Of a DNA stretch of 64,000 nt, positions 1 through 57,514 are shown piece after piece. Source of the DNA: Trueperaceae bacterium (GTDB lineage Bacteria > Deinococcota > Deinococci > Deinococcales > Trueperaceae); the NCBI GenBank assembly GCA_011390675.1, contig JAABRX010000001.1, positions 5,368 through 69,367 on the forward strand, in the 5' to 3' direction. The position numbers and the translations under genes are program-made. The stretch's first letter is position 1; each line of letters starts with the position of its first letter. A model generated the notes under the pieces. It was not told the DNA's origin. It worked only from the letters and a program-made list of their open reading frames with translations, and did no database searches.

Positions 1-223
1 CATGGCCTCAGCTCCTGCGTCCGCTCGGCCGATCCGGTCGAGGCATCACGATGGCGGCATCATAACCAGGGCTCTGGAGACGCAGGCCCCGCCCAAAGCC
101 GCCCATCGCGCGGCACGAACCTCTTCGGCGGTCGCGAGGCTACGCGCAAGGTCCCGTGGGCGACGGAGCTAGCGAGAAGCCAGCGAACGGAGTCGACGAC
201 GGGGACGGGCTCGGGGACCATCG

Positions 224-239
224 GCCATAACGTTATGGC
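224..239. repeat. 16-bp perfect palindrome GCCATAACGTTATGGC in non-coding DNA upstream of the origin repeats
   Basis: Read directly. Positions 224-239 are self-complementary, with an AT-rich core in GC-rich surroundings. Confidence 0.6.
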
Positions 240-529: not shown

Positions 530-902
530 GGGGAACGCGGGGGACTCGTGGGTCTCATCGGTGCTTAGCGCGCGCGATGCGGGCCGTACCGATCGTACTT
601 CGAACCCAAGACCGGGGAATTCGCGGGACCGTGCCCGCGGCACGGGGAAGGCGGGGTACCGCTTGACCGGGGAATTCGCGGGACCGTGGCGTTGTCGCCC
701 GTCGGTCCCACGCCTTTCCCGGTTCGCTCGACCAACGGGTACCCAGCGGGACTCGCGCCGTTGGGTGTCGAGCGCTACCCGCGGTCGCCAGCCCGGGTGC
801 GCGGGTCCTCGGATCTCGGATCGCGCTGGAGGCTCCGAACGGGGAACGAGAGGGACTCGAGCCGGATCGCAGGTCCAGCGGGGAATCCATGGGGGTATCG
901 TG
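530..902 (+). repeat. Dispersed family of degenerate ~20-bp direct repeats (GGGGAA, 4-7 nt, GGG(A/T)(C/A)(C/T)CG), including two identical 24-mers
   Basis: Copies read at 530-550, 614-633, 644-660, 669-688, 841-861 and 880-902, plus 1182-1200. GACCGGGGAATTCGCGGGACCGTG occurs identically at 610-633 and 665-688 (55 bp apart). An inverted GGGACCGA core lies at 702-709. Confidence 0.7.
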
Positions 903-974: not shown

Positions 975-1030
975 GCGCGTTCGTGTTGCTTGTACGTTTA
1001 AGGTCTTCCATTACCATTCCCTTTAGGGGG
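975..1030. other. AT-rich island, candidate DNA unwinding element of the origin
   Basis: Hand count gives about 57% A+T over 981-1027 (tcgtgttgcttgtacgtttaaggtcttccattaccattccctttagg), against roughly 30% elsewhere. It lies directly left of the iterons. Confidence 0.55.
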
Positions 1031-1081
1031 GCCCTTCGAGGTCGTGCTGGACGCGCGTGCGACGGCGAACCGGGGAGGCCC

Positions 1082-1190
1082 GGGGACCGAGGCGGGAGCG
1101 GACGGGGACCGAGGCGGGAGAGCAGCGGGACCGATGTGGGGAGGCTGCGGGACCGAGTGGGGAGCGGGGGGGACCGAAATGGGGGAAACG
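1082..1190 (+). repeat. Five tandem ~22-bp iterons with a conserved GGGACCGA core
   Basis: Core GGACCGA starts at 1084, 1106, 1128, 1150 and 1171 (spacing 22, 22, 22, 21 bp). The first two units are identical over GGGGACCGAGGCGGGAG. The array lies ~100 bp upstream of the rep start. Confidence 0.8.
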
Positions 1191-1231
1191 GGGTACTCGC
1201 CGTTCGAGGTTCGTCGCCCATGTGGTGAACA

Positions 1232-1261
1232 TTGACACACGCTTTCCCGCATCCGTATGCT
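1232..1261 (+). promoter_or_regulatory. Sigma70-like promoter of rep (TTGACA, 18 nt, TATGCT)
   Basis: TTGACA at 1232-1237 and TATGCT at 1256-1261. These are followed by the SD GGGAGGAG (1274-1281) and ATG at 1286. Confidence 0.5.
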
Positions 1262-1285
1262 CCGATCGGACGCGGGAGGAGAGCG

Positions 1286-2920
1286 ATGGACGTTCCCACT
1301 TCGAGGCGCCGGGCTGCCGGTGCACCGGCCACGGAGGCCACGGCGGTCGACGCCGCGGTCGGCGACGGCGCTGACGGCAACGGGAGCGGGGTCGACGGCG
1401 GTGGCGACGGTCGGGCCCGCACCAACCCTGCCGCGCCCAGGGCCTCGGGGAGCGCACGGTCGGGCACCCGCGGAGCACGCCCTGCCAAGAGCGCGGCCAA
1501 GAACGCCGCCAAGGGTACGGCGCGTGCCGGTGCCAAGCGCGCGATCGAGCGTCGGAGCGGCGGCCGCGTGTCGGTCACGCAGGCGAACCCGCTGGCGCTG
1601 TCGCGGCAGGAGATGGGGCTCCTGACCAAGCGGCTGCTCGTGCTCGCGCTTTCCGACATCACCCGCGACGACCACGATCTGGAGCCCATCCGGATCACGG
1701 CGTGGGAGTACGCCCAGATCTTCAACATCCGGGGCAAGAGCATCTACAACCGCATCGAGGACAGCGCCCGCGAGCTCCTCGAGCAGACCGTCCAGATCAA
1801 GGAACCCAACGGCGACTGGATCATGTTCCAGTGGGTCTCCGAGGCGCGGTACGACAGCGGTCGCGACAGCAAGGACAAGCTCGCCTGCATCGAGCTCAAG
1901 ATCCACGACAAGCTCAAGCCCTACCTGCTGCAGCTGCGGCGCGACTTCAGCATCATCCCGACGGACCAGCTGCTCAGCTTCGAGTCGTTCAACAGCATGC
2001 GGCTGTTCGAGGTCCTCTACACCGCCAGCTACGGCGGCGAGAAGCGCCACCTCGATTTCGACGTCGACGACCTGAAGCTGCGTCTGGGCCTCGACGGCAA
2101 GTACGAGCGCTTCAAGGACTTCACCTACGTCCTCGACAAGGCTCAGGGCGAGTTCGCCAAGTACACGTCGCTGACGTTCACGTACGAGGGGCGCAAGGTC
2201 GGTCGGAAGTACCAGAACGTCGCGATCGTCATCGAGAAGAACGACGTCTTCCAGCCGCGCGTGCGGCTTCCGGACAGCATCGCCCGGCGGGTGCAGCGCG
2301 AGGGGGACACCGAGGCCCAGCTCCGGGCGCTGCAGGCCGCCGACGCGCTGCGCGACGTCGGCTGGGCGCTCGAGCCCGATCGGAGCGTCGCGCAGCACGG
2401 CGCCCAGCGGGTCATCGACGTCGTGCGCTACGCCCGCTCGCTGCAGCGCAAGTCCGAGCAGACCGGAAGGCCCATCGCGAACCTCGCCGGCTTCGTGCAC
2501 AGCTTGCTGCAACAGGGGATCGAACCGCCGCCCGCTGAGCCGGAGGTCGTCGACGCGCGACTGACGCGCGACGCCGTCCGCGGCATCGTGTCGGGCATCG
2601 TCGACGCCTTCGACCAGCAGCGCCGCGAGCGCGCCAAGGCCGCTTGGGAGGCCCTGAGCGACGACCAGCGCGACCTGGTCCACACGCTCATGCAAGCGAC
2701 CGGCCACCGCTTCACGCTCGAGCGCATCGAGGCCGCGGGGTGGGCGGGGCCGCTGTACGAGGCGAACCGCATCGACGTCTTGCTCAGCCACGGCTTCCTG
2801 ACGCTGCCGCCCTACCTCAGCGACGTGGTCGCCTACGCCGACCACGGCGACCTGCTCGAGGAGTACCCGGCCGAGGACCGCCAACGGTTGCTGAGCGAAC
2901 TCCGCGAGGCAGGTGCCTGA
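1286..2920 (+). CDS. Replication initiator, Rep_3/RepB-like, with a low-complexity N-terminal tail and a long C-terminal extension
   Basis: Track ORF 1232..2920; its TTG start is the -35 hexamer, so ATG 1286 with a strong SD is preferred. The core (LSRQEMGLLTKRLLVLALS, ITAWEYAQIF, SMRLFEVLY, DDLKLRLGL, YERFKDF, VAIVIEKN) follows the layout of Rep_3 winged-helix initiators. Confidence 0.8.
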   Translation: MDVPTSRRRAAGAPATEATAVDAAVGDGADGNGSGVDGGGDGRARTNPAAPRASGSARSGTRGARPAKSAAKNAAKGTARAGAKRAIERRSGGRVSVTQANPLALSRQEMGLLTKRLLVLALSDITRDDHDLEPIRITAWEYAQIFNIRGKSIYNRIEDSARELLEQTVQIKEPNGDWIMFQWVSEARYDSGRDSKDKLACIELKIHDKLKPYLLQLRRDFSIIPTDQLLSFESFNSMRLFEVLYTASYGGEKRHLDFDVDDLKLRLGLDGKYERFKDFTYVLDKAQGEFAKYTSLTFTYEGRKVGRKYQNVAIVIEKNDVFQPRVRLPDSIARRVQREGDTEAQLRALQAADALRDVGWALEPDRSVAQHGAQRVIDVVRYARSLQRKSEQTGRPIANLAGFVHSLLQQGIEPPPAEPEVVDARLTRDAVRGIVSGIVDAFDQQRRERAKAAWEALSDDQRDLVHTLMQATGHRFTLERIEAAGWAGPLYEANRIDVLLSHGFLTLPPYLSDVVAYADHGDLLEEYPAEDRQRLLSELREAGA

Positions 2921-2924
2921 CGCG

Positions 2925-3587
2925 ATGTGCGGGCGGTACACGCTCTACCACGACGAGGAGGACCTGAGCACCCTCTTCGAGCTCGACGCCTTCGCCGTGG
3001 CGCCCCGTTACAACGTGGCGCCCACTCAGACGGTGCCCATCGTCCGGGTGGGGGAGGGCGGTCGACGCGAGCGCGTCGACGCCCGCTGGGGTCTCGTACC
3101 GGGATGGGTGAAGGAGCCCCGAGCGTTCAAGGCGCTGCTCTTCAACGCCCGGTCCGAGACGGTCGCGGAGAAGCCGAGCTTCCGCGACGCCGCGCGGCGC
3201 ACCCGCTGCGCGGTCCCGGCGAGCGGCTTCTTCGAGTGGACCGTCGGCGACGGCGGTCGCAAACAGCCCTGGTACATCCACCGGCGCGACGGCGCGCCGA
3301 TGGTCTTCGCGGGCCTCTACGCCGAGCGCGGCGACGGCGGACCGAGCCTGAGCACGACGATCTTGACGACCGAACCCAACGCGACGCTGGCGGCGCTCCA
3401 CGACCGCATGCCCGTCGTCCTCGACCCCTCGGCGATCGCACGCTGGCTCGACCCCGACCAGCGCGATCCGCACGCCCTCGACGACCTGCTCGTGCCCTGT
3501 CCGGACGCCTGGCTGGAGGCGTACCCCGTCGGTCCGGAGGTCGGGAACGCGCGCGTGGACGAGCCGAGCTTGATCCAGCGGGCCTGA
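2925..3587 (+). CDS. SOS-response-associated peptidase (SRAP; YedK/HMCES-type abasic-site processing protein)
   Basis: MCGRY N-terminus (Cys2 nucleophile if the start is ATG 2925). Motifs: FNARSETV, PASGFFEW, HDRMPVVL. Confidence 0.85.
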   Translation: MCGRYTLYHDEEDLSTLFELDAFAVAPRYNVAPTQTVPIVRVGEGGRRERVDARWGLVPGWVKEPRAFKALLFNARSETVAEKPSFRDAARRTRCAVPASGFFEWTVGDGGRKQPWYIHRRDGAPMVFAGLYAERGDGGPSLSTTILTTEPNATLAALHDRMPVVLDPSAIARWLDPDQRDPHALDDLLVPCPDAWLEAYPVGPEVGNARVDEPSLIQRA

Positions 3588-9685: not shown

Positions 9686-9811
9686 GCGAGGGGCGCTGGG
9701 CGGCGCTGCGCGCCGTCGACCGCGAGCCGGACGACGCGGTGGAGCTGCTCGTGTTCGCGCGTCGGCTCGGTGGCCGCACGCTGGCGCCCCGTGCGCGGGC
9801 TGCTGCCCCCC

Positions 9812-9817
9812 TACACT
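9812..9817 (+). promoter_or_regulatory. -10-like TACACT, 6 nt upstream of the ligA ATG (candidate leaderless promoter)
   Basis: TACACT-gacgtc-ATG read directly. No SD. Confidence 0.4.
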
Positions 9818-9823
9818 GACGTC

Positions 9824-11914
9824 ATGCCCGACGCCCCCCCTCCCGCGGACGCCGCCGCCCGCGCCGCCGAGCTCCGCCGCGCGATCGCGCACCACGACCG
9901 GCTGTACTACCAGGACGACGCCCCCGACATCAGCGACGAGGCGTACGACGCGCTGTGGCATGAGCTCAAGGAGCTCGAGGCGGCCCATCCCGAACTCGTG
10001 ACGCCCGAGAGCCCCACCCAGCGGGTCTCGGGGACGCCGCTCGACGGCCTCGAGAGCGCCGAGCACGTCGCCCCCATGCTCAGCCTCGACTCCAGCGCCA
10101 AGGAGGAGGCGTTCCGCCAGTTCGACGCGCGCCTGCGCAAGGCGCTCGGCGACGACGTCCCGCTGCGCTACTCGCTCGAGCCCAAGCTCGACGGGTTGTC
10201 GATCGAGCTCGTCTACGAGGGCGGCCGCCTGACCCGCGCGGTCACCCGCGGCGACGGACGCACCGGCGAGGTCATCACGGCGAACGCGCGCACCATCCGC
10301 TCGCTGCCCCTCGAGCTCGACGGCTCGGTGCGGCCGTTGCCGCCGCTGCTCTCGGTGCGCGGCGAGGTGTTCTTGGCGCTGCAGGCCTTCGACGACGTCA
10401 ACGAGCGCTTGATCCAGGAGGGCAAGCCGCCCTTCGCCAGCCCCCGCAACGTCGCCGCGGGCACGGTGCGCCAGCTCGACCCCGCGCTCGCTGCCTCGCG
10501 CCCGCTCTCGGTGTACGCCTACGACGTCCTCGAGGCGGGCGCTGGCGACGATGGCCACGGAGCGCTCGCGACCCACACCGAGGTGCTCGCGGCGATGCGC
10601 GACTGGGGTCTCCCCGTCAACCCCGAGAACGCGCTCGCGGACGACGCCGATGGGGTGTGGCGTGCGTTCGAGGCGTTCGCCGAGCGCCGCGACCACCTGC
10701 CGTACGAGGTCGACGGCCTGGTCGTCAAGCTCGACGACCTCGCCGCCCGGCGGCGCCTCGGCACCACCGCCCACCACCCGCGCTGGGCGTACGCGATCAA
10801 GTTCGCGCCGCGCAAGGAGGTGAGCCAAGTGCTGCGGATCATCGCCAGCGTCGGGCGCACCGGCGTGGTGACGCCGGTGGCGCTCCTGCGGCCGGTGAAC
10901 ATCGGCGGCGTGACGGTCGCCCGCGCCAACCTGCACAACCGCGAGGACGTCGAGCGCAAGGACATCCGCGAGGGCGACACGGTTCGCGTCGAGCGCGCGG
11001 GCGACGTGATCCCCCAGGTGATCGAGCGGATCGAGGTCGCCGGCGCCGAGGAGCGTGGCGCTCCGTTCCGGATGCCCGAGCGCTGCCCCAGCTGCGGCAC
11101 CGAACTGGTCGCGCGAGGCCCCTACAGCCTGTGCCCCAACGCCTTCGGCTGCCCGGCGCAGGCCGTGGCGCGGCTCGTGCACTTCGGCAGCCGCGCAGCG
11201 CTCGACGTCGAGGGTCTGGGGGAGGTCACGGCGCGACTGCTCGTCGAGGAGGGGCTCGTGAAGGAGCTGCCCGATCTGTTCGACCTGCGCGCGGCCGACT
11301 TCGAGCGGCTCGAGGGGTTCGCCGAGCTCTCGGCTGCGAACCTCGAGGCGAACGTCGCGAAGGCGGCGGCCACGACCCTGCCGCGCTTCCTGGTGGCGCT
11401 CGGCGTGCCCGACACGGGTCCTGCGGTGGCGCGCACCCTAGCCGGGCGGTTCGGGAGCGTCGAGGCCCTGCGCGCCGCCGACGCCGACACGCTGGCCGCC
11501 GTGCACGGCATCGGCCCGATCATGGCCGAAGCGATCGCCGGCTTCTTCGCCGACCCCAAGAACGCGCGCGTCGTCGACGCGCTCCTCGACGGGCGCGTGC
11601 AGGTGGCACCCTTCGAGGTGGTCGCACCGGCCTCCGACGCGCTCGCAGGCACCACCCTGGTCTTCACCGGCGCGCTGGAGCGCTTCACTCGCGGCGCCGC
11701 CGAGGCGCTCGTGGCCAAGCTCGGCGGCAAGGCGGCCAGCAGCGTCAGCACCAAGACCACCCTCGTGGTCGCCGGCGCCGATGCCGGCAGCAAGCTCGAG
11801 AAGGCCGTGGCGCTCGGGGTGCCGGTCGCCGACGAGGAGGGCTTCCTCGCCTTCCTGGAGGAGCGCGGGGTGGCGCCGGGCGAGGTCGCAGCGTTGGTCG
11901 GAGGTGCCGAATGA
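9824..11914 (+). CDS. ligA: NAD-dependent DNA ligase
   Basis: Adenylation motif EPKLDGLS. Zn finger CPSCGTELV..CPN..CPAQ. HhH region and C-terminal BRCT (TLVFTGALERFTRGAAEALV). Internal ATG 9824 of track ORF 9770..11914 chosen. Confidence 0.95.
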   Translation: MPDAPPPADAAARAAELRRAIAHHDRLYYQDDAPDISDEAYDALWHELKELEAAHPELVTPESPTQRVSGTPLDGLESAEHVAPMLSLDSSAKEEAFRQFDARLRKALGDDVPLRYSLEPKLDGLSIELVYEGGRLTRAVTRGDGRTGEVITANARTIRSLPLELDGSVRPLPPLLSVRGEVFLALQAFDDVNERLIQEGKPPFASPRNVAAGTVRQLDPALAASRPLSVYAYDVLEAGAGDDGHGALATHTEVLAAMRDWGLPVNPENALADDADGVWRAFEAFAERRDHLPYEVDGLVVKLDDLAARRRLGTTAHHPRWAYAIKFAPRKEVSQVLRIIASVGRTGVVTPVALLRPVNIGGVTVARANLHNREDVERKDIREGDTVRVERAGDVIPQVIERIEVAGAEERGAPFRMPERCPSCGTELVARGPYSLCPNAFGCPAQAVARLVHFGSRAALDVEGLGEVTARLLVEEGLVKELPDLFDLRAADFERLEGFAELSAANLEANVAKAAATTLPRFLVALGVPDTGPAVARTLAGRFGSVEALRAADADTLAAVHGIGPIMAEAIAGFFADPKNARVVDALLDGRVQVAPFEVVAPASDALAGTTLVFTGALERFTRGAAEALVAKLGGKAASSVSTKTTLVVAGADAGSKLEKAVALGVPVADEEGFLAFLEERGVAPGEVAALVGGAE

Positions 11915-15002: not shown

Positions 15003-15277
15003 GCGGCGCCCCGAGGATGCTCGAGCGCACCGGGCCGCTCCAGCCCGATCTGTTCTCGGGAACGCAGGTGCTCGAACGGGTCTTGGGCCACAGCCGAACC
15101 GTCGTCCGCCTGCGGCTGCGGCCGCTCGGCGGCGGTCGGGTGCGGGTGGAGGAGGCCGCGCGCCGGCTCGCCGGGCGGGCGCGGTTCGATCCCTGGCCCG
15201 AGGAAGAGGGCCGCGAGGTCGCCTTCGAGCGGCTCGGGTTCGCGGTCGGCTACGCCGACGTGTTCGGACCTGGCTGA
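14999..15277 (+). CDS. Small hypothetical protein (92 aa from GTG 14999; 86 aa from ATG 15017)
   Basis: GTGA overlap with the regulator stop. Third-position GC about 90% in this frame by hand. No recognisable family. Confidence 0.35.
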   Translation: MSGAPRMLERTGPLQPDLFSGTQVLERVLGHSRTVVRLRLRPLGGGRVRVEEAARRLAGRARFDPWPEEEGREVAFERLGFAVGYADVFGPG

Positions 15278-18258
15278 ATCGGATCCGGCCGAGGCGCGGC
15301 GCCCTCCTCGAGCAGCCCCAGGAAGCGCGCGGTGAGCTCCGGGTCGAACTGGCTGCCGGCGCCGCGCGCGAGCTCGGCGACCGCTGCCTCGTGCGACCAC
15401 GCCTCCTTGTAGGGGCGTTCCGAGGTGAGCGCGTCGTAGACGTCGATCAAGCTGAACACGCGCGCGGCCAACGGGATCGCGGTGCCCGCGAGCCCGTCGG
15501 GGTATCCGGCGCCGTCCCAACGCTCGTGGTGCGACCGCACCAGCTGGCGCGTGTCGACCGGGAGGAAGCGCAGATCGCGGCACAGGTCGTCGCCGATCGT
15601 GGCGTGGGTGCGGATGAGCACGTACTCGTCGGCATCGAGCTTGGACGGCTTGAGCAGCACCTGGTCGGGGATGGCGATCTTGCCGATGTCGTGCAAGTAG
15701 GCGCCCCACTGCAGGGCTCGGGCGCGTTCGGGTGGAAGCTCCAGCGCCGCGGCGAAGCGGTGCGTCAGCGCCACCACCCGGTCGGTGTGCCCCTTGGTCT
15801 CGTAGTCGCGGTACTCGAGCGCGATCCCCAGCGCGCGGAACGCGTCCTGGCGGGTCGCCTCGATCTCGTGCAGGTAGTCGGCGCGCTCGAGCGCGTGCTC
15901 CAGGCGCCGGACGAAGGCGCGCGCCACCGTCAGCTGATCGGACCTCAGCTCGTTGCGGCGCTGGTAGCTCGCGAGCGCCAGCACGTCGACCCCCTCGTCG
16001 GTCGACACCGGTAGGCAGAGCATGGTGGCCAGCCCGAGGTCGGCGAGCCCGGGGACCGCGCCGGGCCAGGCGCCGTAGTCGGGCAGGTACACCACGTCGC
16101 GGGTCGCCGCCGCCGCGCCGACCGCCCCCGACGCGTTCACCACCGGTGCCGAGGCGATGTCGAGGATCCCCTCCGGGATCGTGCCCCACGAGCGCTCCAA
16201 GTGGAGCGCGTCGCCGCGCCCTACGAAGAAGGCGGCGGAGTCCATGGCGAACTCGTGCATGAGCGTCGTCGCGCCCGTCTCGAGGAGCGCGTCGACGTCG
16301 TGCAGGTCCTCGATCGCGCCCGAGAAGTTCGCCAGGTCGCGGTAGCTCGTCGCCGCGGTCCGCAGCCGCTCGAGCAGCTGCGCCACGTCGAGGGCGACCG
16401 CCGCCTGGCCGGCGATCGCCGCCACGAAGGCCGCGTGGCCGGGCGTGCGGGCCGCTCCGTCGACGTAGAACGCCTCGAGCACGCCGAGCGGTCGGCCCTT
16501 GGCGAGCAGCGGGAACGCCGTGTAGGCCTCGAAGCGCCCGAGCATGGCGGCGGGGCCTGCCGCGTGTTCGCGGATCAGGCGGTCGCGACCGTCGACGTCG
16601 AGCGGTGCGCCGGCCGCGAGCGCTCGCCCGGCCAGCCCCTCCCCAGGGCGGAGCGCGACGTCGTGCAGCAGGTGGCGCGGGAGCCCGAGGGTCGCGGCGT
16701 AGCCGAGGGTGCCGGCGTCCGCGTTCTTGAGCAGCACGGCGGCGGCGTCCACCCGCGCGTGGAGCAGCAACTGCTCCAGGATGACGTCGAGCACCGCGGC
16801 GGGCTCGGTCTGGTCCGCGATCGCCGCGTCGATGCGGCGCAGCGTAGCGAGCTGCTCGACTTGCCTCTCCAGCGCTTGGTTGGCGGTGGCGAGGGCGTCG
16901 CGGTGGCGGTGCACGTCGGCTTCCGCGGAGCGTCGCGCGAGAGCGACCTCGACCTGCCGCGCGAACAACCGCGCCAAGGGGCCCGCGTCGTCCGCGAACG
17001 GTGGTGCGTCGGCGAGGCGGTCGATGCACAGCGCCGCTTCGAGGCGGCCGGCGAGCACGATCGGGACGACGAGCGTCGACGCGATGCCGGTCTCGAGCGT
17101 GTAGGCCGAGAGCGCGGCCGGCACGGCCTCGGGCAGGTCGAGCACCACCTTCGGAACGTCCACGACGACGTTCGGTTCGCCGTCGCTCCAGTCCCTCCCG
17201 AACAGCACCTGGTCGGCAGGCAGCTCGAACCGGCTCAGCCGCGCCAGGTCGTACCCGACGGCGGCGACGAAGGCGAAGGTGCCGCGCTCCGTGCGTGCGA
17301 GCGCGCTCCCGCGGGTGCCGCCGAGCTGCTCCAACGCCTCTTCGAGCACGATGGCGAACGGGTTCGGATCGTCGTCCCATGGGCGTTCGTAGAGTCGGAG
17401 CAGGGCGCGCTGCCGGGCCGCGCGCCGCTCCGCTTCGACCGCACGCTTCTCGCGCTCCTGCTCCAGGGCGAGCCGGTCGCTCGCATCGCGGGCGTTGAGC
17501 ACGAACGCACCGACCGCCGGTTCGGCGCGCAGGTCTTGCACCACCGCGTCGGTCGGCAGCCAGGAGCCGTCCCGGGTCCGCAGCCGCAGCGCGCCGCGCC
17601 GTGGCCCGCCGCCGTCCGCGAAGAGCGCAGCTGCGACCGCTCGGTCGTCCGGGTGGATCAGATCGGGCAAGAGCGTACCGATCCGGTCGCGCGGTTCGAA
17701 CCCCAAGATCGGGCGGATCGAGGGCGACACGTACGCGATCACCCCCGTGTCCTGCACGAGCGCGATGACGCCCGACGCGTGCGCGACGAGCGCCTCGAAC
17801 CGCGCGTCCCACGTGCGCCGCTCGGCCAGCAAGCGCTCCTCCTCGGTCAGGTTGCGAGCGAGGACGAGGACCGCGAGCTCGCCGCCCCACGAGACCGGGT
17901 TGGCCGTGATGTCCACCGGGAGCTCGCTGCCGTCCGCCCGCAGGTGGCGCCACCGGGCGGGGCCCGGGTGGACGACGTCCGGACCCTGGTGCCGCAGCCG
18001 TTCCCGGAGCCGCACGCCCTCGTCGGGCGAGCGCAGATCCATCAGGTCGAGGGTCAGGAAGGTCGCGCGGTCGTAGCCGTACGCGGAGCACGCGGCGTCG
18101 TTGACGGCCACGATCCGAAGCGTGGCCCGCAGGTAGATCCAGGCGGGCACCGGGTGGTCGGCGAGCAGCGCATCGAACGCGGCGAGCGACCCGGCGCCGG
18201 CATCGAAATCGTCCTCGTGCACGCTGCTGCTCCTTTCCGCGACGAGCCTCCCGCGCAT
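15250..18258 (-). CDS. Multi-sensor PAS/GAF HD-GYP-domain protein (putative c-di-GMP phosphodiesterase)
   Basis: 1002-aa ORF. Two N-terminal PAS-like modules, a coiled-coil linker and GAF-like repeats. C-terminal HD-GYP motifs HDIGKIAIP and HHERWDGAGYP. Confidence 0.85.
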   Translation of the reverse strand: MRGRLVAERSSSVHEDDFDAGAGSLAAFDALLADHPVPAWIYLRATLRIVAVNDAACSAYGYDRATFLTLDLMDLRSPDEGVRLRERLRHQGPDVVHPGPARWRHLRADGSELPVDITANPVSWGGELAVLVLARNLTEEERLLAERRTWDARFEALVAHASGVIALVQDTGVIAYVSPSIRPILGFEPRDRIGTLLPDLIHPDDRAVAAALFADGGGPRRGALRLRTRDGSWLPTDAVVQDLRAEPAVGAFVLNARDASDRLALEQEREKRAVEAERRAARQRALLRLYERPWDDDPNPFAIVLEEALEQLGGTRGSALARTERGTFAFVAAVGYDLARLSRFELPADQVLFGRDWSDGEPNVVVDVPKVVLDLPEAVPAALSAYTLETGIASTLVVPIVLAGRLEAALCIDRLADAPPFADDAGPLARLFARQVEVALARRSAEADVHRHRDALATANQALERQVEQLATLRRIDAAIADQTEPAAVLDVILEQLLLHARVDAAAVLLKNADAGTLGYAATLGLPRHLLHDVALRPGEGLAGRALAAGAPLDVDGRDRLIREHAAGPAAMLGRFEAYTAFPLLAKGRPLGVLEAFYVDGAARTPGHAAFVAAIAGQAAVALDVAQLLERLRTAATSYRDLANFSGAIEDLHDVDALLETGATTLMHEFAMDSAAFFVGRGDALHLERSWGTIPEGILDIASAPVVNASGAVGAAAATRDVVYLPDYGAWPGAVPGLADLGLATMLCLPVSTDEGVDVLALASYQRRNELRSDQLTVARAFVRRLEHALERADYLHEIEATRQDAFRALGIALEYRDYETKGHTDRVVALTHRFAAALELPPERARALQWGAYLHDIGKIAIPDQVLLKPSKLDADEYVLIRTHATIGDDLCRDLRFLPVDTRQLVRSHHERWDGAGYPDGLAGTAIPLAARVFSLIDVYDALTSERPYKEAWSHEAAVAELARGAGSQFDPELTARFLGLLEEGAAPRPDPIQPGPNTSA

Positions 18259-18710
18259 GCGCCCGCGCGCCTGCGTCGGACGAAGGTGGACGTCCAGCGC
18301 CTCATGCTACGGCGCGACCTCCATCCGCGCCGTGCCGGGGTCGGTGCGTGGAGCGCGTGGCACGCCGCGCGGCGCCCGTCGCGCGTGTCGTGCACGGGCG
18401 ACCGCCGTTCGGGTACCGTGAAGGGACGTCGCCCGCGCGCATCGCGCGGGCGACCGACGTACCCCCCGCCGTTCGCGGCCCGCTCGACCTGAGGACCGCG
18501 CCTTCCGCGGTGTCGCCCGCCCGGGCGGTGCACTGGTTGGAGGGTGAATCCGAACCGGGGCTCCGGTGCGCTCGAGCTGCGCCCCGAACCGAGTGGTACC
18601 GCCGGACCCCGAGGAGGCTCGATGACGATCCCGCAACGGGCGACGCGCCTGGGCGCCCGCGAGTCCAACGCACCCCCTGCCGGCCCCGGTCGGAGCCGCG
18701 GAGCGCGCCG

Positions 18711-41306: not shown

Positions 41307-41314
41307 GAAGGTCC

Positions 41315-44300
41315 ATGAGCGCTGCGCGCTTTCCATCGCGTGACCCCGACGCGGATCCTCTCGATCTGCGGGCCTGGATCGATCGCTTGCCGGTCGGCGC
41401 GGTGTGGACCGACGGTACGCGCCTGGTCGCCAACGCCCGGATCGAGGCCCTGATCGGCCGGCCGCGCGAGCGCGTGGCCACCTTGGACGACTGGTTCCGC
41501 GAGGTCTACGGCGACGAGGCCGAGCGGTACCGGGCGGACTACGAGGCCGATCGAGCGAAGGGTTTTCCGTTCCCCGTCCGGTCGCCGATCCGCCGGCCCG
41601 ACGGCGACGAGCGCGTCCTGGAGTACCGTTGCATCACCGACGAGGTGGGCGAGGTCTGGCTGATCGACGACCGCACCGCCGAGGTGGTCGCAGGCACGCT
41701 CGCGCGCACCCTGGACGGCGTGCTGCGGAAGGTGAGCGACCACGTGCCGGGCGTGCTCTACCAGTTCCTCGCGCGGCCCGACGGCACCTACGCGTTCCCG
41801 TTCGCGACCCAGGGCATCCGCGAGGTGTACGGCGTCGAGCCCGACGACGTGCTTGAGGACGCGAGCGCCGCGTTCGAGGCGCTCCATCCCGACGACCGGG
41901 CGCGCGTCGAGGCGACCATCGAGCGCTCGCGCGCCACGCTGTCCGTTTGGCGCGAGACGTACCGCGTGCGCCACCCGGAGCGCGGCGAGCGCTGGCTCCA
42001 CGGGGAAGCGACCCCTGAGGCACTCCCGGACGGCACGGTCTTGTGGCACGGATACATCAGCGACGTGACCGAGCTGCGTCAGGCGCAGGAGGCGCTCGTC
42101 GCGTCCGAGGCGTACCTTCAGGACGTCTTCGCCGCGACCGAGGCGGCCATGTTCGTGGTCGACGTCGAGCCCGACGGGACGTTCCGCTACGTAGGATCGA
42201 ACACCGCGCACGTGCGCGCGTCCGGGATCCCCACGGAGACCTTGGCCGGGTCCACGCCCTACGACGTGGTACCGCCCGACGCTGCCGAAGCGGTGGTGGC
42301 CCGGTACCGAGCCTGTGCGGACGCCGGGGAGCCCGTGACCTACCAGGAGGAGCTGCCGCTACCGGCGCCCGGCACGTGGTTCCGCACCAGCCTCGTCCCC
42401 GAGCGCGACGCCACCGGTCGTGTCCACCGGATCGTGGGCAGCGGCTTCGACATCACGGCCTCACGAAGCGCCGAGCTCGCCGTGCGCGAACGCGACGCGC
42501 TGCTGGAGCGCGCGCAGCGCGTCGGCCGGTTGGGGACCTGGGCCTACGACCCCGTCGATGGGGCCGCGAGTTGGTCGCCGGCGGTCGAGGAGTTGGTCGG
42601 GCCCCTTGGGGTCCTCGGCGTCGTCGATACGTTGCGCGAGCGGGTGGTCGAGGAAGACCGGGGCAGGGTCGAGACTGCGTGGGCCGAGGGGCTCGCCAAC
42701 GGCCGCTTCGACGTCACCTTCCGCGTGCGCACCGCCGACCATCCGCGCTACGTGCGGCTCGTCGGTGAGCGCGAGCGGACGGACGAGCCCGAGGCTCGGT
42801 TCGTCGGCACGCTGCAAGACGTCGACGAGGCGACCCGCCGCGAAGCGGAGGTGGCCCGCCTCGCGATGATCGTCGAGCAAGCGCCCAGCATCGTGATCTT
42901 GACGGGCCCGGACGGCACCATCGAGTACGTCAACCGGCGCTTCGAGGAGGCGACCGGCCATCGTGCCGACGACGTCGTCGACCGCCCGCTGGCGATGCTT
43001 GCGAGCAACGACGTGGACGCCGAGCGGCAGCTCCAGGCGATGTGGCCCGTGATCCTGGCTGGCGGCTCGTGGTCGGGGCGGCTCGAGCGTCGGCGCGCGG
43101 ACGGCAGCTGGTACCAAGAGCGCGCGACCTTCAGCCCGCTGTTCGATGCGGCGGGTCGCGTGAACCACGTGCTCAAGCTCTCCGAGGACGTCACCGAGCA
43201 GCAGCGCCTCGCCGACCGGGTCGAATACCTGTCGTCCTACGACCCGCTGACCGGCCTCGCGAACCGGGGGTTGCTCGAGGACCGCCTCGATGCAGCGATC
43301 GTCGCTGCCAAGCGCCACGGCGACCACGTGGCGGTGCTCCTGCTCGACCTCGACGCGTTCAAGACGGTCAACGACGGCTTGGGGCACCGCGCCGGCGACG
43401 CCTTGCTCGCCGAGGTCGCGACGCGCTTGCGCGTGCACGTGCGGGCGGACGACCTGGTCGCCCGCTTCGGTGGCGACGAGTTCGTCGTCTTGCTCGACCG
43501 GGTGAGCCGTCTCGACGACCTCGCGCCGGTGGTCGCGAAGCTGCGCGCGGGGCTCGAGGCGCCCTTGGAGGTGGACGGGCACCGCTTGTCGGCGTCGGCG
43601 TGCGTCGGCGTGGCGGTGTTCCCCGAGGACGCCGAGAGCGGCGAGGTGCTCCTGCGCTACGCCGACGCGGCGATGGAGCGCGCCAAGGAGCGCGGGCCCG
43701 GCAGCGTCGCGTACTACACCGATGCCCTGAGCTCCCGGCTCGAGGAGCGCGTGCGGCTCGAGGCCGCCATGCGGCTCGGGTTCGCGGCCGGCGAGTTCCG
43801 GCTCGTGTACCAGCCGCGCGTCGACATGGCCAGCCGCCGCGTGGTCAGCCTCGAGGCGCTGGCTCGCTGGCGCTCGCCGACGTTCGGCGACGTGCCGCCG
43901 GGCCGGTTCGTCGCGGTGGCCGAGTCCAGCGGCTTCATCCACGAGTTCGGCGCCTGGGTCACCCGCACCGCGGCCGCCCAGCTCGCCGCCTTCCGCGAGG
44001 CCGGACTCCCGATCGTGCCGATCGCGGTCAACCTCTCCGTGCGCCAGTTCCTCCGCGACGACGTCGTCGAGGTGGTCCAGCGCGCGCTCGAGGACGTCGA
44101 CGTGCCGCCCGGACTGTTCGAGGTGGAGATCACCGAGAGCACCGCCATGACCGACGTTGCCGACACGGTCGCCAAACTGCGCGCCTTCGAACGCCTTGGG
44201 GTGGCGGTGAGCATCGACGACTTCGGGACGTACCACTCGTCGCTCGGACGCCTCAAGCGCTTGGCCGTCAAGAGCATCAAGATCGATCGTGGCTTCGTCA

Positions 44301-44539
44301 TGGACCTGGGCGACGACCCGAGCGCAGCCCCGCACGATGCGGCGATCGTGCGCGCGATGATCGGGATCGGCGAGGCGCTGGGGCTCGAAGTGATCGCCGA
44401 GGGCGTCGAGACCGAGGCGCAGCGCGACTTCTTGTTGCGCAACGGGTGCCGGTTGGCGCAGGGCTTCCTGTTCGCGCGACCGGGCGAGGTCGAGCAGGTC
44501 GCGCAGTGGCTTCGCGCCGGGCGTCTGCCCGCTTCCTGA
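41315..44539 (+). CDS. Multi-PAS GGDEF-EAL protein (diguanylate cyclase/phosphodiesterase)
   Basis: 1074 aa with several PAS/PAC modules. I-site RADD five residues before GGDEF. EAL motifs (SLEALARW, EITES, DDFGTYHSS, KIDRGF, EGVETE, QGFLF). Confidence 0.9.
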   Translation: MSAARFPSRDPDADPLDLRAWIDRLPVGAVWTDGTRLVANARIEALIGRPRERVATLDDWFREVYGDEAERYRADYEADRAKGFPFPVRSPIRRPDGDERVLEYRCITDEVGEVWLIDDRTAEVVAGTLARTLDGVLRKVSDHVPGVLYQFLARPDGTYAFPFATQGIREVYGVEPDDVLEDASAAFEALHPDDRARVEATIERSRATLSVWRETYRVRHPERGERWLHGEATPEALPDGTVLWHGYISDVTELRQAQEALVASEAYLQDVFAATEAAMFVVDVEPDGTFRYVGSNTAHVRASGIPTETLAGSTPYDVVPPDAAEAVVARYRACADAGEPVTYQEELPLPAPGTWFRTSLVPERDATGRVHRIVGSGFDITASRSAELAVRERDALLERAQRVGRLGTWAYDPVDGAASWSPAVEELVGPLGVLGVVDTLRERVVEEDRGRVETAWAEGLANGRFDVTFRVRTADHPRYVRLVGERERTDEPEARFVGTLQDVDEATRREAEVARLAMIVEQAPSIVILTGPDGTIEYVNRRFEEATGHRADDVVDRPLAMLASNDVDAERQLQAMWPVILAGGSWSGRLERRRADGSWYQERATFSPLFDAAGRVNHVLKLSEDVTEQQRLADRVEYLSSYDPLTGLANRGLLEDRLDAAIVAAKRHGDHVAVLLLDLDAFKTVNDGLGHRAGDALLAEVATRLRVHVRADDLVARFGGDEFVVLLDRVSRLDDLAPVVAKLRAGLEAPLEVDGHRLSASACVGVAVFPEDAESGEVLLRYADAAMERAKERGPGSVAYYTDALSSRLEERVRLEAAMRLGFAAGEFRLVYQPRVDMASRRVVSLEALARWRSPTFGDVPPGRFVAVAESSGFIHEFGAWVTRTAAAQLAAFREAGLPIVPIAVNLSVRQFLRDDVVEVVQRALEDVDVPPGLFEVEITESTAMTDVADTVAKLRAFERLGVAVSIDDFGTYHSSLGRLKRLAVKSIKIDRGFVMDLGDDPSAAPHDAAIVRAMIGIGEALGLEVIAEGVETEAQRDFLLRNGCRLAQGFLFARPGEVEQVAQWLRAGRLPAS

Positions 44540-49899: not shown

Positions 49900-51339
49900 T
49901 CAGGCGACCGCGGTCGCCCGCCCCTCGCGATCGAGGTACCTCCGCAACGCCGCGAACACCACCGGGTCGATCCCGGTCCCCAGGTCGCGCTCGAGGATGG
50001 CGATCACCCGCGCCCGATCGAGCCGCTCGCGGTAGGGGCGTTCGGCCGACAGCGCCTCGAACTGGTCCGCGACCGCCAGGATCCGTGCTTCGAGCGGCAG
50101 CTCGGCGCCACCGACGCCGCGGTGGTACCCGCCGCCGTCGACGCGCTCGTGGTGCATCGCCGCGACCTCGGCGAGGTCGCGGAAGGGACCGACGCGCTCG
50201 AGGATCCGCAACGTGTGGTCGGGGTGGCGCCGCACCTCGACGAGCTCCTCGTCGGTCAGGCGCCCAGGCTTGTCGAGGATCGCGCTCGACACCCCGAGCT
50301 TGCCCAGGTCGTGCAGCAGCGCCGCGCGCCTCAGGCGCCGCTGGCCGGCCGCGTCGATGCCGAGCTCTTCGGCGATCCCGACCGTGTAGCGCGCCACCTC
50401 GGTGGAGTGGCGGTAGGTCCAGGGCGACTTGGCGTCGATCACGCCCGCGAACGCTTCGGCGACGCGGTCGAGCTGAGCCTCGTCGGAGCGGCGGACGCGG
50501 TCCTCCGGTTCGAGCGCGGCCACCCGTTCGCGCACCCGCTCGCCGGCGAGCGCCGGCCAGAAGTCCGGACGCCGCTGCGCCTTCAAGAAGGCGTCGACCA
50601 GCTGCGGGTCGAACCAGGTGCCGCGGCGCCGACGCGCCACGCGGCGGGCGGCGGCCGGCCCGTAGGCGCTGGCGAACACCTCGGTGGTCTGGGCCAGCTG
50701 CAGGATGCGGCCCAGGAGCGGGATGCCTTCGCCGTGCAGCCCGGCCGGTTGCCCGCGCCCGTCCCAGTGCTCGTCGAGCGTGCGGATCGCGTCGGCGGTG
50801 GCGTCCGCGAACCCGAGGTCGAGGGCGATCGAGGCGCCGCGCTCGCAGCGCAGCGCCATCAGCTCCTGGGTGCCGCCGTGGCGCCCGAGCGCCACCTCCG
50901 CGATGCGGCGGATCCGAGCGAGGCTCACCTCGCCGCTGCGGGTCGCGCGCACCACGAACCGGAAGGCATCGGCCAGGTTCGTCCAGCGCATCCGCTTGTG
51001 GAGCGCCTTGGCCGCGCGGTCGTCCGCCTGGAAGAGCTGCGCCATCTTCGACGCGTTCGACGAGCAACCGAGGTCCTTGAGCAGCAGCGCGTAGAACAGC
51101 GACGACAGCGTCGTGGTGGGGAGGTCGATCTCGGCCGCCACGCGCATGCCGATCAGGCAGGTGCGCAGCGCGTGCCCCTCGGGCATGCCCTCGGTGAGGT
51201 CGAGCGCGGTGCTGAGCGCGGCGACGACCTCGGACGTGCGCAGCGCCGCGCTCGGGTCGACCGCGGCGCCCAGGGCAACGGCGGTGGCCGTGGGGTTCGG
51301 TGCACCGGTCGGCGGGGCGGGGGCGATCGCTGAGGTCAC
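49900..51339 (-). CDS. Tandem HD-domain protein: degenerate N-terminal HD-GYP-like module plus C-terminal HD-GYP-type module
   Basis: N-terminal module has KD in place of HD (LLLKDLGCSS) and HWDGRGQP. C-terminal module has LLHDLGKLG and HHERVDGGGYH (GYH instead of GYP). Confidence 0.8.
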   Translation of the reverse strand: MTSAIAPAPPTGAPNPTATAVALGAAVDPSAALRTSEVVAALSTALDLTEGMPEGHALRTCLIGMRVAAEIDLPTTTLSSLFYALLLKDLGCSSNASKMAQLFQADDRAAKALHKRMRWTNLADAFRFVVRATRSGEVSLARIRRIAEVALGRHGGTQELMALRCERGASIALDLGFADATADAIRTLDEHWDGRGQPAGLHGEGIPLLGRILQLAQTTEVFASAYGPAAARRVARRRRGTWFDPQLVDAFLKAQRRPDFWPALAGERVRERVAALEPEDRVRRSDEAQLDRVAEAFAGVIDAKSPWTYRHSTEVARYTVGIAEELGIDAAGQRRLRRAALLHDLGKLGVSSAILDKPGRLTDEELVEVRRHPDHTLRILERVGPFRDLAEVAAMHHERVDGGGYHRGVGGAELPLEARILAVADQFEALSAERPYRERLDRARVIAILERDLGTGIDPVVFAALRRYLDREGRATAVA

Positions 51340-51345
51340 GCCGTC

Positions 51346-51351
51346 ACGCTA
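51346..51351 (-). promoter_or_regulatory. -10-like TAGCGT, 6 nt upstream of the HD-GYP GTG
   Basis: The minus strand reads TAGCGT-gacggc-GTG. Confidence 0.35.
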
Positions 51352-54300: not shown

Positions 54301-54599
54301 CAGGTGCCCAGCATCTCGACGTTCTCGATGAGCGGCGGTGCGTCCGAACCGTCGGGGTGCTGGCGCCACTCGTACGTGCGCGACAACGTCCAGCCGTCCT
54401 CGCCGAGCGTCATGATGCTCGCCACGTGGGCGCTGGCCGCCTCCGCCAGTTCCCCGAGGGCCGCAGCGACGCCGCGTTCGATCGCTTCGGCGGGTCGTTC
54501 CGTCACCCGACGCAGCAGCTGCAGCGTGCGCGGTGCGATGAGGTCCGCGCCGCGGCCGCGGCGATCGCGGTCGCCCGAGTCGTGCCGGTCGGCTGCCAT
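51375..54599 (-). CDS. GAF-PAS-GGDEF-EAL protein, tandem paralog B
   Basis: 1074 aa. I-site RDED five residues before GGDEF. EAL motifs GVEALARW, EVTES, DDFGTGYSSL, KIDRSF, EGIEE, QGFLL. Confidence 0.9.
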   Translation of the reverse strand: MAADRHDSGDRDRRGRGADLIAPRTLQLLRRVTERPAEAIERGVAAALGELAEAASAHVASIMTLGEDGWTLSRTYEWRQHPDGSDAPPLIENVEMLGTWWNRLVANEAIVVDDLNAWTADPDGAPRAHVAARLAAGSAALLYAPMRTDYRTTGFVAFERPVPGPWPEDAAVAFGTAAQVVLGDVERTQTARERDDALRDLRHLAAEVPGGLFRFERAPDGARRFAYASPRFGELLGIDIAPLRSNANPALDRILDQDRPAFEASLVASARSLQRWDHEFRAIDHAHGVRVLHGRAVPSQREDGTMVWHGFLHDVTERTHLTEALRRSESELRTMLELSDDAVVLVDAERQVAALNPTAATRVRNRFGHELRVGAKIDRVIDDPVFHSDLDTALSGAEVRAVRGPESRAAGLPPYWVDVTFQPLWSEGAVHGAVYRSVDVTERIRERAALEREVAFRRSLLALTHDVLGAAPDADVHEQVLHHAIAHVPGADTGCVLARGEDGRFRFVALHARPLGDLTQVALGPESFARRRLDRVERVDLRAERELMDPETAKRFNTHPNAAPLAATLSVPIVAGGDLLGFLQLDAMHEDGFDEESLERAELLGGTVAVLLQRRALERALNEERTKLAHLAHHDPLTGLPNRTLLNDRLERALARDRRTEARTALLVIDLDAFKSVNDAFGHAAGDELLVTVATRLRDALRDEDTVARLGGDEFAVVAAGLQDADSAAKVAQKVIDVLRQEVLVAGRAVRVGGSVGVSVAPDDATDAATLMRHADLAMYRVKREGRGAVAYFTRDLDARMRARAALTEDLRGALRAEASLWVAYQPRVRLADGALEGVEALARWDHPSQGPIAPGTFVPLAEEAGLIATLGAFVLDRACADLVTWRAAGLAVPRVCVNVSVHQLRADDFEQGVRDAIARHGLEPQDLELEVTESVMADERHQATAALAALQASGIRVAMDDFGTGYSSLHRLAVLPVDVLKIDRSFVRGLGFDDHGDDPDATEAASRGTAVVDAVLALAAGLGLEVVAEGIEEPAQRRALVTRGCRVGQGFLLARPMPASDLAGWTYRADETA

Positions 54600-54676
54600 G
54601 GCGACAGCCTACGGGACTCGGGCATGCGGTCGTGGCGAAACGGTCGGGTACGCGCGGGGCACGCGGTTGGGCGAGG

Positions 54677-57466: not shown

Positions 57467-57514
57467 CGCGCTTCGCCGCTGCGGTGCGTCAGCGCGCCTG
57501 GCTTCGGGCCGGCA

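Follow-up and report, generated by a model that had tools for sequence, protein, structure and literature searches.

A conserved iteron-type origin module with a Rep_3 initiator predicted for a large secondary replicon of uncultured Trueperaceae

A 64,000-nt stretch of contig JAABRX010000001.1 (assembly GCA_011390675.1, positions 5,368 to 69,367) from a Trueperaceae bacterium, hereafter called the window, was analyzed for the replication module at its left end, which comprises the intergenic region between a divergent parA gene and rep, and the rep gene itself. We consider it highly probable that nucleotides 4-1285 of the window are the origin of vegetative replication (oriV) and the control region for a secondary replicon of uncultured Trueperaceae that is large and of low copy number (a megaplasmid or chromid) and is initiated by the Rep_3 protein encoded at 1286-2920. 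The module as a whole is very likely to be a functional iteron-type origin. Its predicted membership among the Rep_3 iteron replicons, whose initiators carry two winged-helix domains (WH1-WH2), is supported by every element that could be tested in the sequence, with the exception of the DnaA box, which was not found, and with a candidate operator that is imperfect in one arm. An earlier reading made from the letters of the window (the sequence-only reading) had proposed the layout of an iteron plasmid, with a DNA-unwinding element, iterons, and an autoregulated rep gene in that order, and this layout is supported by the present analysis, with each element found to be conserved in position across related loci.

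The repeats to the left of rep were found to form a tandem array in helical register. The core GGACCGA starts at positions 1084, 1106, 1128, 1150, and 1171 with a spacing of 22, 22, 22, and 21 bp, which matches the sequence-only reading exactly. When the region 1060-1200 was compared with 2,000 dinucleotide-preserving shuffles, this core was observed five times versus a shuffle mean of 0.18 and maximum of 2. The sequence GGGACCGA has eight copies on the + strand in the whole 64 kb, five of them inside the tandem array. Tandem Repeats Finder (TRF) detected a period of 22 bp in 4.5 copies at 1081-1177, plus a sub-period of 11 bp. With the register of the unit taken from the repeat-family analysis and the related loci, the iteron was found to be bipartite, GGGRA-N6-GG(G/T)ACC, with half-sites that start 11 bp apart. 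The five iterons originally described are all present as cores; in the register of the related loci, however, the array consists of six units (1072-1197) spaced 22/22/22/21/22 bp apart, of which the sixth (1181) is degenerate, reading GGTACT. The iterons are about 80% G+C, and the array ends 88 bp 5′ of the rep ATG. Two half-sites separated by one helical turn would fit a single protein monomer with two DNA-reading heads.

Iteron-like sites were also identified outside of the array. A loose form of the iteron pattern (GGGRR-N4-8-GG[GT]AC[CT]) was detected at 15 distinct sites, all of them within 201-1197, and at none in the other 62.7 kb of the window; shuffles of 1-1285 (n = 1,000) gave a mean of 0.15 matches and a maximum of 3. 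Besides the units of the array, these matches include nine dispersed sites, six on the + strand and three on the − strand, for which the simplest interpretation is that of auxiliary sites bound by Rep, which may act in titration or handcuffing. At one of them (614-630), the half-sites are preserved and the spacer is variable in the two closest relatives (L033 and L001). Considering the six tandem units and the nine dispersed sites together, the functional region would extend over the whole 1.28-kb parA-rep intergenic space. Several long open reading frames (ORFs) cross 1-1228, all with a flat G+C fraction of about 0.7 at the three codon positions (GC1/GC2/GC3), compared with a GC3 of 0.9 in the real genes; since none of these ORFs shows the GC3 bias by which real genes are marked in a genome of 73% G+C such as this, the region is taken to be noncoding. 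A separate array was observed in the parA-rep intergenic region of one related locus (L010), where an additional and unrelated 17-bp tandem repeat (GGGCAGAGTCAACCGCG, 7.3 copies) lies 1316-1194 nt upstream of the rep match.

Conservation of the module was examined in a survey of species-representative genomes, which provided 34 rep loci of up to 7.8 kb each, with palindrome counts (see below) made over 37 loci. Clusters of the bipartite motif precede rep in 33 of the 34 loci; of a total of 304 motif sites, 297 are in or beside the region upstream of rep and 7 are elsewhere in the loci. Arrays with a period of 20-22 bp were reported by TRF upstream of rep in most loci, and arrays of about 43 bp in two. 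Alignment of 24 loci brought the AT-rich island, the array, and the promoter into register with few gaps, the array block being gap-free, and analysis of information content over these loci revealed that all six iteron positions are conserved at the half-sites only (GGGRA and GG(G/T)ACC), with spacers that drift. Half-sites that are kept while spacers are free, together with a positioned island, point to selection that acts on half-sites bound by a protein and on an unwinding element kept in its position. Overall, purifying selection was visible on Rep, the half-sites, the AT-rich island, the promoter, parAB, and the palindrome in more than 30 species-level genomes with Rep identity down to about 56%; what had been an impression from a single sequence thereby becomes a predicted feature of the family. 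Of the 34 loci, 33 come from metagenome-assembled genomes (MAGs) of Trueperaceae, Deinococcales, or Deinococcota, or from MAGs without a taxon in their title. The exception was L034 (JAWOGY010000193.1), a 3.7-kb contig with a Trueperaceae-type rep and iterons in a MAG titled Vicinamibacterales (Acidobacteriota); its placement is probably a binning error, and horizontal transfer may be an alternative explanation.

The AT-rich island stands out from the remainder of the window in composition. The segment 981-1027 was measured at 57.4% A+T, in line with the value of about 57% given by the sequence-only reading, versus 27.1% in the whole window. Only 4 of the 63,954 47-mers of the window reach 57.4% A+T, and all four are within 978-1027. 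The island ends about 45 bp to the left of the iteron array, and its position was found to be conserved: in 18 of the 24 aligned loci, the 40-mer of minimum GC is located 84-89 nt (about 86 nt) upstream of the array start. The aligned loci share a TTGyTG...CATTCCnTTTArTGG pattern in the island, T-rich on the rep strand. By this composition and conserved position, 978-1027 would correspond to the AT-rich element that flanks the iterons in Rep_3 origins. Two further features were observed in its surroundings. At the left edge of the island (966-978), a hairpin rich in G+C, GCGCCGGAGGCGC, precedes a T-rich run and resembles a terminator on the + strand; L033 retains this hairpin, and L001 does so in part. 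The GC-rich spacer that separates the island from the first iteron contains the sequence CTGGACG (1047-1053), which is not iteron-like; its GACG core is shared by at least 90% of the 24 loci in the alignment, and it could be a site for a host factor.

The protein encoded by rep was found to be related to the initiators of iteron plasmids in both sequence and predicted fold. Comparison with the Pfam hidden Markov models gave matches to Rep3_N (PF01051; E-value 1.1e-23, 84.7 bits, cut-off 22.4) and Rep3_C (PF21205; E-value 1.2e-8, 35.5 bits, cut-off 21.1), in agreement with the Rep_3-like gene that the sequence-only reading had placed at 1286. When a profile of the Rep family was compared with the PDB, it matched RepE (2z9o and 1rep), pi (2nra), and pPS10 RepA (1hkq) at 1e-11 to 8e-24. 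In the AlphaFold2 model of Rep (mean predicted local distance difference test score, pLDDT, of 75.6), residues 103-318 are confidently predicted as a WH1-WH2 core, and the model superposes on RepE and pi (2z9o, 2nra, and 1rep) with a Foldseek probability of 1.00 and a target-normalized template modeling (TM) score of up to 0.74. Residues 1-102 (window 1286-1591) are predicted to be disordered and are rich in Ala, Gly, Arg, and Lys; this N-terminal extension varies in sequence and length among homologues, and the core is highly conserved. Residues 330-544 (window 2273-2917) form a confident, all-helical C-terminal domain of 215 aa, with a pLDDT of about 89 when modeled alone. No Pfam match was detected for this domain, the best Foldseek match in the PDB had an E-value of 0.2 and a TM score below 0.2, and a tblastn search of PLSDB with the domain alone gave no match. 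An exhaustive HMMER search found the domain in 71 clusters at 50% identity; in full-length hits, which are about 430-510 aa long, it forms the C-terminal part. Among the hits scanned, all 10 had Rep3_N at the N-terminus and 9 of the 10 also had Rep3_C; because the hits carry it behind Rep3_N, the helical domain appears to mark a "long Rep_3" subtype. No protein identical to Rep of the window was on record in an exact-protein look-up, and identity to annotated plasmid Reps was at most 33%. About 100 homologues of about 500 aa with 56-93% identity were found in the protein collection, of which the few that are named appear as "replication initiation protein [Trueperaceae bacterium]".

The promoter region of rep provided further insight into how the gene may be controlled. 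The element TTGACA-18-TATGCT agrees with 10 of 12 consensus positions and was the sole sigma-70-like match in 1-1400 (shuffle mean 0.0). The TTGAC of the −35 hexamer is nearly invariant in the 24 aligned loci. This promoter, the Shine-Dalgarno (SD) sequence, and the ATG at 1286 had all been named in the sequence-only reading, and they were found to be present and conserved in the closest relatives. A TTG at 1232 was considered as an alternative rep start and rejected, as it is part of the −35 hexamer, and the ATG at 1286 has an SD sequence and fits the N-termini of the homologues. The 24 loci share the arrangement GGGGAA(A)-N2-3-TTGAC-N6-7-TTCCCC around the −35 hexamer, which represents an inverted pair of the GGGRA half-site. 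In Rep_3 replicons, an inverted partial iteron over the rep promoter is classically the operator for Rep dimers, and the RepE-operator structure 2z9o was among the best matches of both the Rep family profile and the model. Because inverted half-sites bracket the −35 hexamer as in Rep_3 operators, we infer, with this support, that Rep represses its own promoter. The arrangement conserved in the 24 loci would fit the autoregulation proposed at the outset, with the reservation that the left operator arm of the window is imperfect, reading GGTGAA and not GGGGAA. A 10-bp palindrome between the −10 hexamer and the SD sequence (TCCGATCGGA, 1261-1270) was also considered as an operator and was rejected, as it is not conserved even in L033 and L001.

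The overlap of half-sites with the rep promoter could also be explained if the repeats were only transcriptional operators for rep and parAB and the origin were elsewhere, e.g., within rep or farther downstream; in certain replicon families (RepABC, for example), the initiator gene does contain the origin. We regard this explanation as extremely unlikely in view of several observations. Replicons of the Rep_3 family have their origin at the iteron array and the AT-rich region beside it, and the iteron complexes of RepE and pi (1rep and 2nra) are among the matches of Rep. Furthermore, the island is uniquely AT-rich, is conserved in position, and has no obvious role in repression, and no comparable repeats or AT-rich island were found elsewhere in the window.

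The other side of the intergenic region was found to border on partition genes. The first 70 nt of the window align base for base with positions 1718-1790 of L033, in which the ORF at 929-1720 on the − strand encodes a ParA-type ATPase (AAA_31, 5.6e-34; CbiA). In all four of the relatives examined, ParA and ParB are encoded upstream of rep and divergent from it. Within the intergenic region, the perfect 16-bp palindrome GCCATAACGTTATGGC was detected as a single copy in the 64 kb when up to 3 mismatches were allowed. Copies of this palindrome are present upstream of rep in 32 of the 37 loci, at one to three per locus and with 0-3 mismatches (mostly 0-2), and two further copies are located beyond parB in L037. 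The palindrome at 224-239 is a strong candidate for parS or a parAB operator. The canonical chromosomal parS, TGTTTCACGTGAAACA, was also searched for, and no copy was detected within 3 mismatches.

The location of the arrays in the parA-rep intergenic region, and the finding that ParB binds 18-bp direct repeats in the equivalent position of Deinococcus radiodurans (Maurya and Misra 2020, PMC7671480), could suggest that the repeats are mainly parS-like centromere sites for the adjacent ParAB and not Rep-binding iterons, which is the interpretation given to the direct repeats preceding parAB on chromosome II and the megaplasmid of D. radiodurans. Four lines of evidence make this very improbable: (i) the separate and strictly conserved palindrome is a much better parS candidate for a ParB of the helix-turn-helix type, which argues against the iterons themselves being the centromere; (ii) the tandem array keeps a constant distance from the rep promoter and the AT-rich island and not from parA; (iii) the repeat unit consists of two nonpalindromic half-sites at a distance of 11 bp, the arrangement expected if a WH1-WH2 monomer is bound; and (iv) an inverted copy of one half-site brackets the −35 hexamer of rep. 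A dual role of the tandem array, as centromere and as Rep iterons, may also be considered. The features of the predicted Rep_3 module are compiled in Table 1.

Table 1. Coordinates of the predicted replication, control, and partition features in the window
Feature	Position	Strand	Remarks
parA start codon	1-3	−	CAT (ATG on the − strand); the gene itself is beyond the window; divergent from rep
Dispersed iteron-like site GGGGACGGGCTCGGGGACC	201-219	+	Bipartite motif match
Perfect 16-bp palindrome GCCATAACGTTATGGC	224-239		Candidate parS centromere or parAB operator
Dispersed iteron-like site, inverted	264-279	−	Bipartite motif match
Dispersed iteron-like site, inverted	316-332	−	Bipartite motif match
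Dispersed iteron-like site	530-546	+	Bipartite motif match
Dispersed iteron-like site GGGGAATTCGCGGGACC	614-630	+	Exact repeat of 669-685
Dispersed iteron-like site GGGGAAGGCGGGGTACC	644-660	+	Found by motif and repeat search
Dispersed iteron-like site	669-685	+	Exact repeat of 614-630
Dispersed iteron-like site, inverted	704-720	−	76% complementary to the start of the tandem array
Dispersed iteron-like site GGGGAACGAGAGGGACT	841-857	+	Bipartite motif match
AT-rich island, candidate DNA-unwinding element	978-1027	+	T-rich on the + strand, 57-60% A+T
Tandem bipartite iterons (n = 6)	1072-1197	+	Unit starts 1072, 1094, 1116, 1138, 1159, 1181
Candidate operator, left arm GTGGTGAA	1222-1229	+	Resembles the GGGGAA half-site; just upstream of −35
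rep promoter	1232-1261	+	−35 TTGACA 1232-1237, 18-nt spacer, −10 TATGCT 1256-1261
Candidate operator, right arm CTTTCCCGC	1242-1250	−	Reverse complement of GCGGGAAAG; inverted half-site between −35 and −10
Shine-Dalgarno sequence GGGAGGAG	1274-1281	+	Conserved in L033 and L001
rep gene	1286-2920	+	544 aa; Rep3_N and Rep3_C, RepE/pi fold, GC3 0.92

The genes around the module were compared in the four relatives with flanks of up to 10 kb on each side. The common order was found to be (DnaE-like polymerase)-AhpC-ParB-ParA, the intergenic region, and then Rep in the opposite direction, with a DnaE-like polymerase encoded beyond parAB in two of the relatives. The gene for the NAD-dependent DNA ligase LigA is located downstream of rep in three of the four (L037, L040, and L041), preceded by an SRAP gene in two and followed by PolX in one; the fourth relative has transposase genes downstream of rep and neither LigA nor SRAP. 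In the most distant relative (59% Rep identity), AhpC is absent and the order ParB-ParA, Rep, LigA is maintained. In the window, an SRAP gene (YedK-like abasic-site sensor; 2935-3587) follows directly after rep and LigA is encoded at 9686-11914, so that in the window and the three relatives, down to 59% Rep identity, LigA is located 0.3-7 kb downstream of rep. SRAP, LigA, the DnaE-like polymerase, and PolX together form a cluster of replication and repair genes at the origin. Synteny is conserved over a range of 56-93% Rep identity, which is no more than suggestive of vertical inheritance.

The other 62 kb of the window encode SRAP, lipases, AlgX/MBOAT/AlgF, LigA, an Mrp antiporter, aminotransferases, the leucyl aminopeptidase PepA, and ABC transporters. 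No conjugation or phage genes were detected among about 37 of the 45 called ORFs that were scanned, and Rfam and tRNA scans detected no tRNA, rRNA, or Rfam RNA in the window. Related rep genes were found in mid-contig positions on contigs of up to 285 kb. Contigs with the module include JBIQLT010000004.1 (285 kb), ERZ25039495 contig_9950 (215 kb), and JBHEOT010000007.1 (75 kb). Chromosome-like genes and related contigs of this size point to the origin of a megaplasmid or chromid, and a plasmid-type replication and partition system on what appears to be a large replicon is as expected of a chromid. Signaling genes were observed to be unusually dense in the window (15250-18306, 41309-44539, 49900-51348, 51375-54608, and 54677-57514); three of the five encode proteins of about 1000 aa with PAS/GAF-GGDEF-EAL domains and two encode proteins with HD_5 (HD-GYP-like), and the set looks like a cyclic di-GMP signaling hub on the replicon.

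Several observations weigh against the interpretation of the module as the active origin of a secondary replicon, in addition to the imperfect left operator arm described above. No match to the DnaA box TTATCCACA was detected in the whole window with up to 1 mismatch; DnaA boxes are common in origins of the Rep_3 family, many classical iteron plasmids having one, and are not universal. The window is a 64-kb fragment of the replicon, and its chromosome-like genes may be compatible with chromosomal integration. The mean GC skew was −0.055 in the left flanks, −0.011 in the right flanks, and +0.017 in the window; the left value was lower than the right in only 16 of 26 loci, which is weakly in the direction of an origin and not decisive. 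These data bear on the possibility that the main chromosome holds the module as the remnant of a plasmid that was integrated or domesticated, with an origin that is silent or serves as a back-up only. Consistent with a remnant, the whole 64 kb to the right have a chromosomal appearance, with LigA, PepA, Mrp, and transporters, and hold no transfer genes among the ORFs scanned, no contig with the rep gene of this module is demonstrably circular, and the GC-skew signal is weak. We nonetheless consider a remnant improbable, as purifying selection across more than 30 species-level genomes would be unexpected for a dead origin, a dedicated parAB pair adjoins the module, and none of the approximately 100 homologues is encoded on a contig larger than 285 kb. 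Thus, an active origin on a megaplasmid or chromid is the interpretation that we favor.

In this favored model, Rep monomers would bind the six 22-bp iterons with one winged-helix domain on each half-site, and the 22-bp spacing would place all monomers on one face of the helix. The Rep-iteron complex would then melt the AT-rich island, with Rep probably holding one of the strands, as in the loop-back model of RepE and TrfA; these two proteins bind iteron double-stranded DNA and single-stranded DNA of the unwinding element simultaneously (PMC10602881). Host helicase and replisome would be loaded thereafter, apparently without a canonical DnaA box. At the rep promoter, Rep dimers on the two inverted half-sites would repress transcription, and the nine dispersed sites (201-857) would titrate Rep and/or pair with the array (handcuffing), by which copy number would be held down. 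The divergent parAB genes and the candidate parS palindrome would segregate the copies. The sequences directly show the elements of the module, their departure from chance, and their positional conservation in related loci, and the fold of Rep is established from its model; from this evidence we infer Rep-iteron binding, unwinding of the island, autorepression, handcuffing, and the role of the palindrome as parS, as well as the size and copy number of the replicon. The mechanism is canonical and the layout is that expected of Rep_3 replicons, so that current views of the function of iteron origins are left as they are. A more far-reaching proposal would be that the module marks an ancient, vertically inherited chromid common to much of the Trueperaceae, on which LigA and SRAP (in relatives, also the DnaE-like polymerase and PolX) are clustered at an origin that fires without DnaA boxes because the C-terminal domain of Rep takes over the recruitment of helicase and replisome; we consider this full scenario rather unlikely.

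Comparison with known replicons revealed both common and distinct features. As in pPS10 (RepA/oriV), mini-F (RepE/ori2), and R6K (pi), the Trueperaceae initiator has two winged-helix domains, which match in sequence and in fold, and tandem repeats of about 22 bp are located in helical phase beside rep, with an AT-rich region adjacent. An inverted partial iteron overlaps the rep promoter in these systems; the inverted half-sites at the promoter of the present module, with their imperfect left arm, resemble it and may serve in autorepression. Unlike the initiators of these plasmids, which are about 250-300 aa, Rep has 544 aa with a disordered N-terminus of 100 aa and a helical C-terminal domain of 215 aa, and its identity to any annotated plasmid Rep is no higher than the 33% noted above. 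Additional differences are the G+C-rich iterons, the lack of a DnaA box, the nine extra dispersed sites upstream, and a host replicon that appears to be large and chromosome-like versus a small plasmid. The low-copy plasmids P1 (incC/incA, parABS) and F (incB/incC, sopABC) have auxiliary control iterons and an adjacent partition system. The Trueperaceae module is similar in that it combines an origin array with extra initiator-binding sites (predicted here) outside of the minimal origin and with adjoining dedicated ParA and ParB, and handcuffing or titration would likewise be the expected control of copy number. In contrast to P1 and F, in which the second group of sites is a tandem array downstream of rep, the auxiliary sites of Trueperaceae are single, occur in both orientations, and are located upstream of the AT-rich island. 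The parAB genes also differ in that they are divergent from rep and share one intergenic region with it.

Within the Deinococcota, the closest parallel in arrangement was found on secondary replicons of D. radiodurans, in which the direct-repeat arrays cisII (chromosome II) and cisMP (megaplasmid MP1) beside parAB confer maintenance and are reported to bind DnaA and ParB (PMC7671480). As in the Trueperaceae module, these direct repeats are located in an intergenic region by parAB; the cisII and cisMP repeats are, however, 18 bp in length, unrelated in sequence to the Trueperaceae iterons, and about 47-52% GC. According to the authors, no known initiator is encoded on chromosome II or the megaplasmid (PMC7671480). 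We find that on MP1 (NC_000958.1, 176244-177344 and 520-2168) a gene annotated in RefSeq as "replication initiator protein A" is divergent from parAB across cisMP. The layout of MP1 is thus that of the Trueperaceae module, although the initiator belongs to a different family ("replication initiator protein A" and not Rep_3).

The sequence-only reading had not recognized the iterons as those of a described replicon, and this was corroborated: a near-identity search of PLSDB detected no near-identical DNA, the identity of Rep to annotated plasmid Reps is low, and no paper was found in the literature searched on plasmids of Trueperaceae or on Rep_3 in Deinococcus. The replicon is undescribed so far, and its origin is a well-supported feature of an ordinary kind. 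The features that make it worth recording are conservation throughout the family in an uncultured clade of Deinococcota, the linkage of LigA and repair genes to the origin, and an uncharacterized domain of Rep. The secondary replicons of Deinococcota are still poorly understood, with the arrays of D. radiodurans known and no known initiator reported (PMC7671480). With the module, an origin, an initiator, and candidates for the operator and the centromere are defined in sequence for a secondary replicon of wide distribution among the uncultured, extremophile-related Trueperaceae. Shuttle vectors for hosts similar to Truepera and Deinococcus could be built from it, and it may be used to bin contigs of megaplasmids or chromids in metagenomes and to examine whether a plasmid-type replicon has become the location of LigA and other repair genes.

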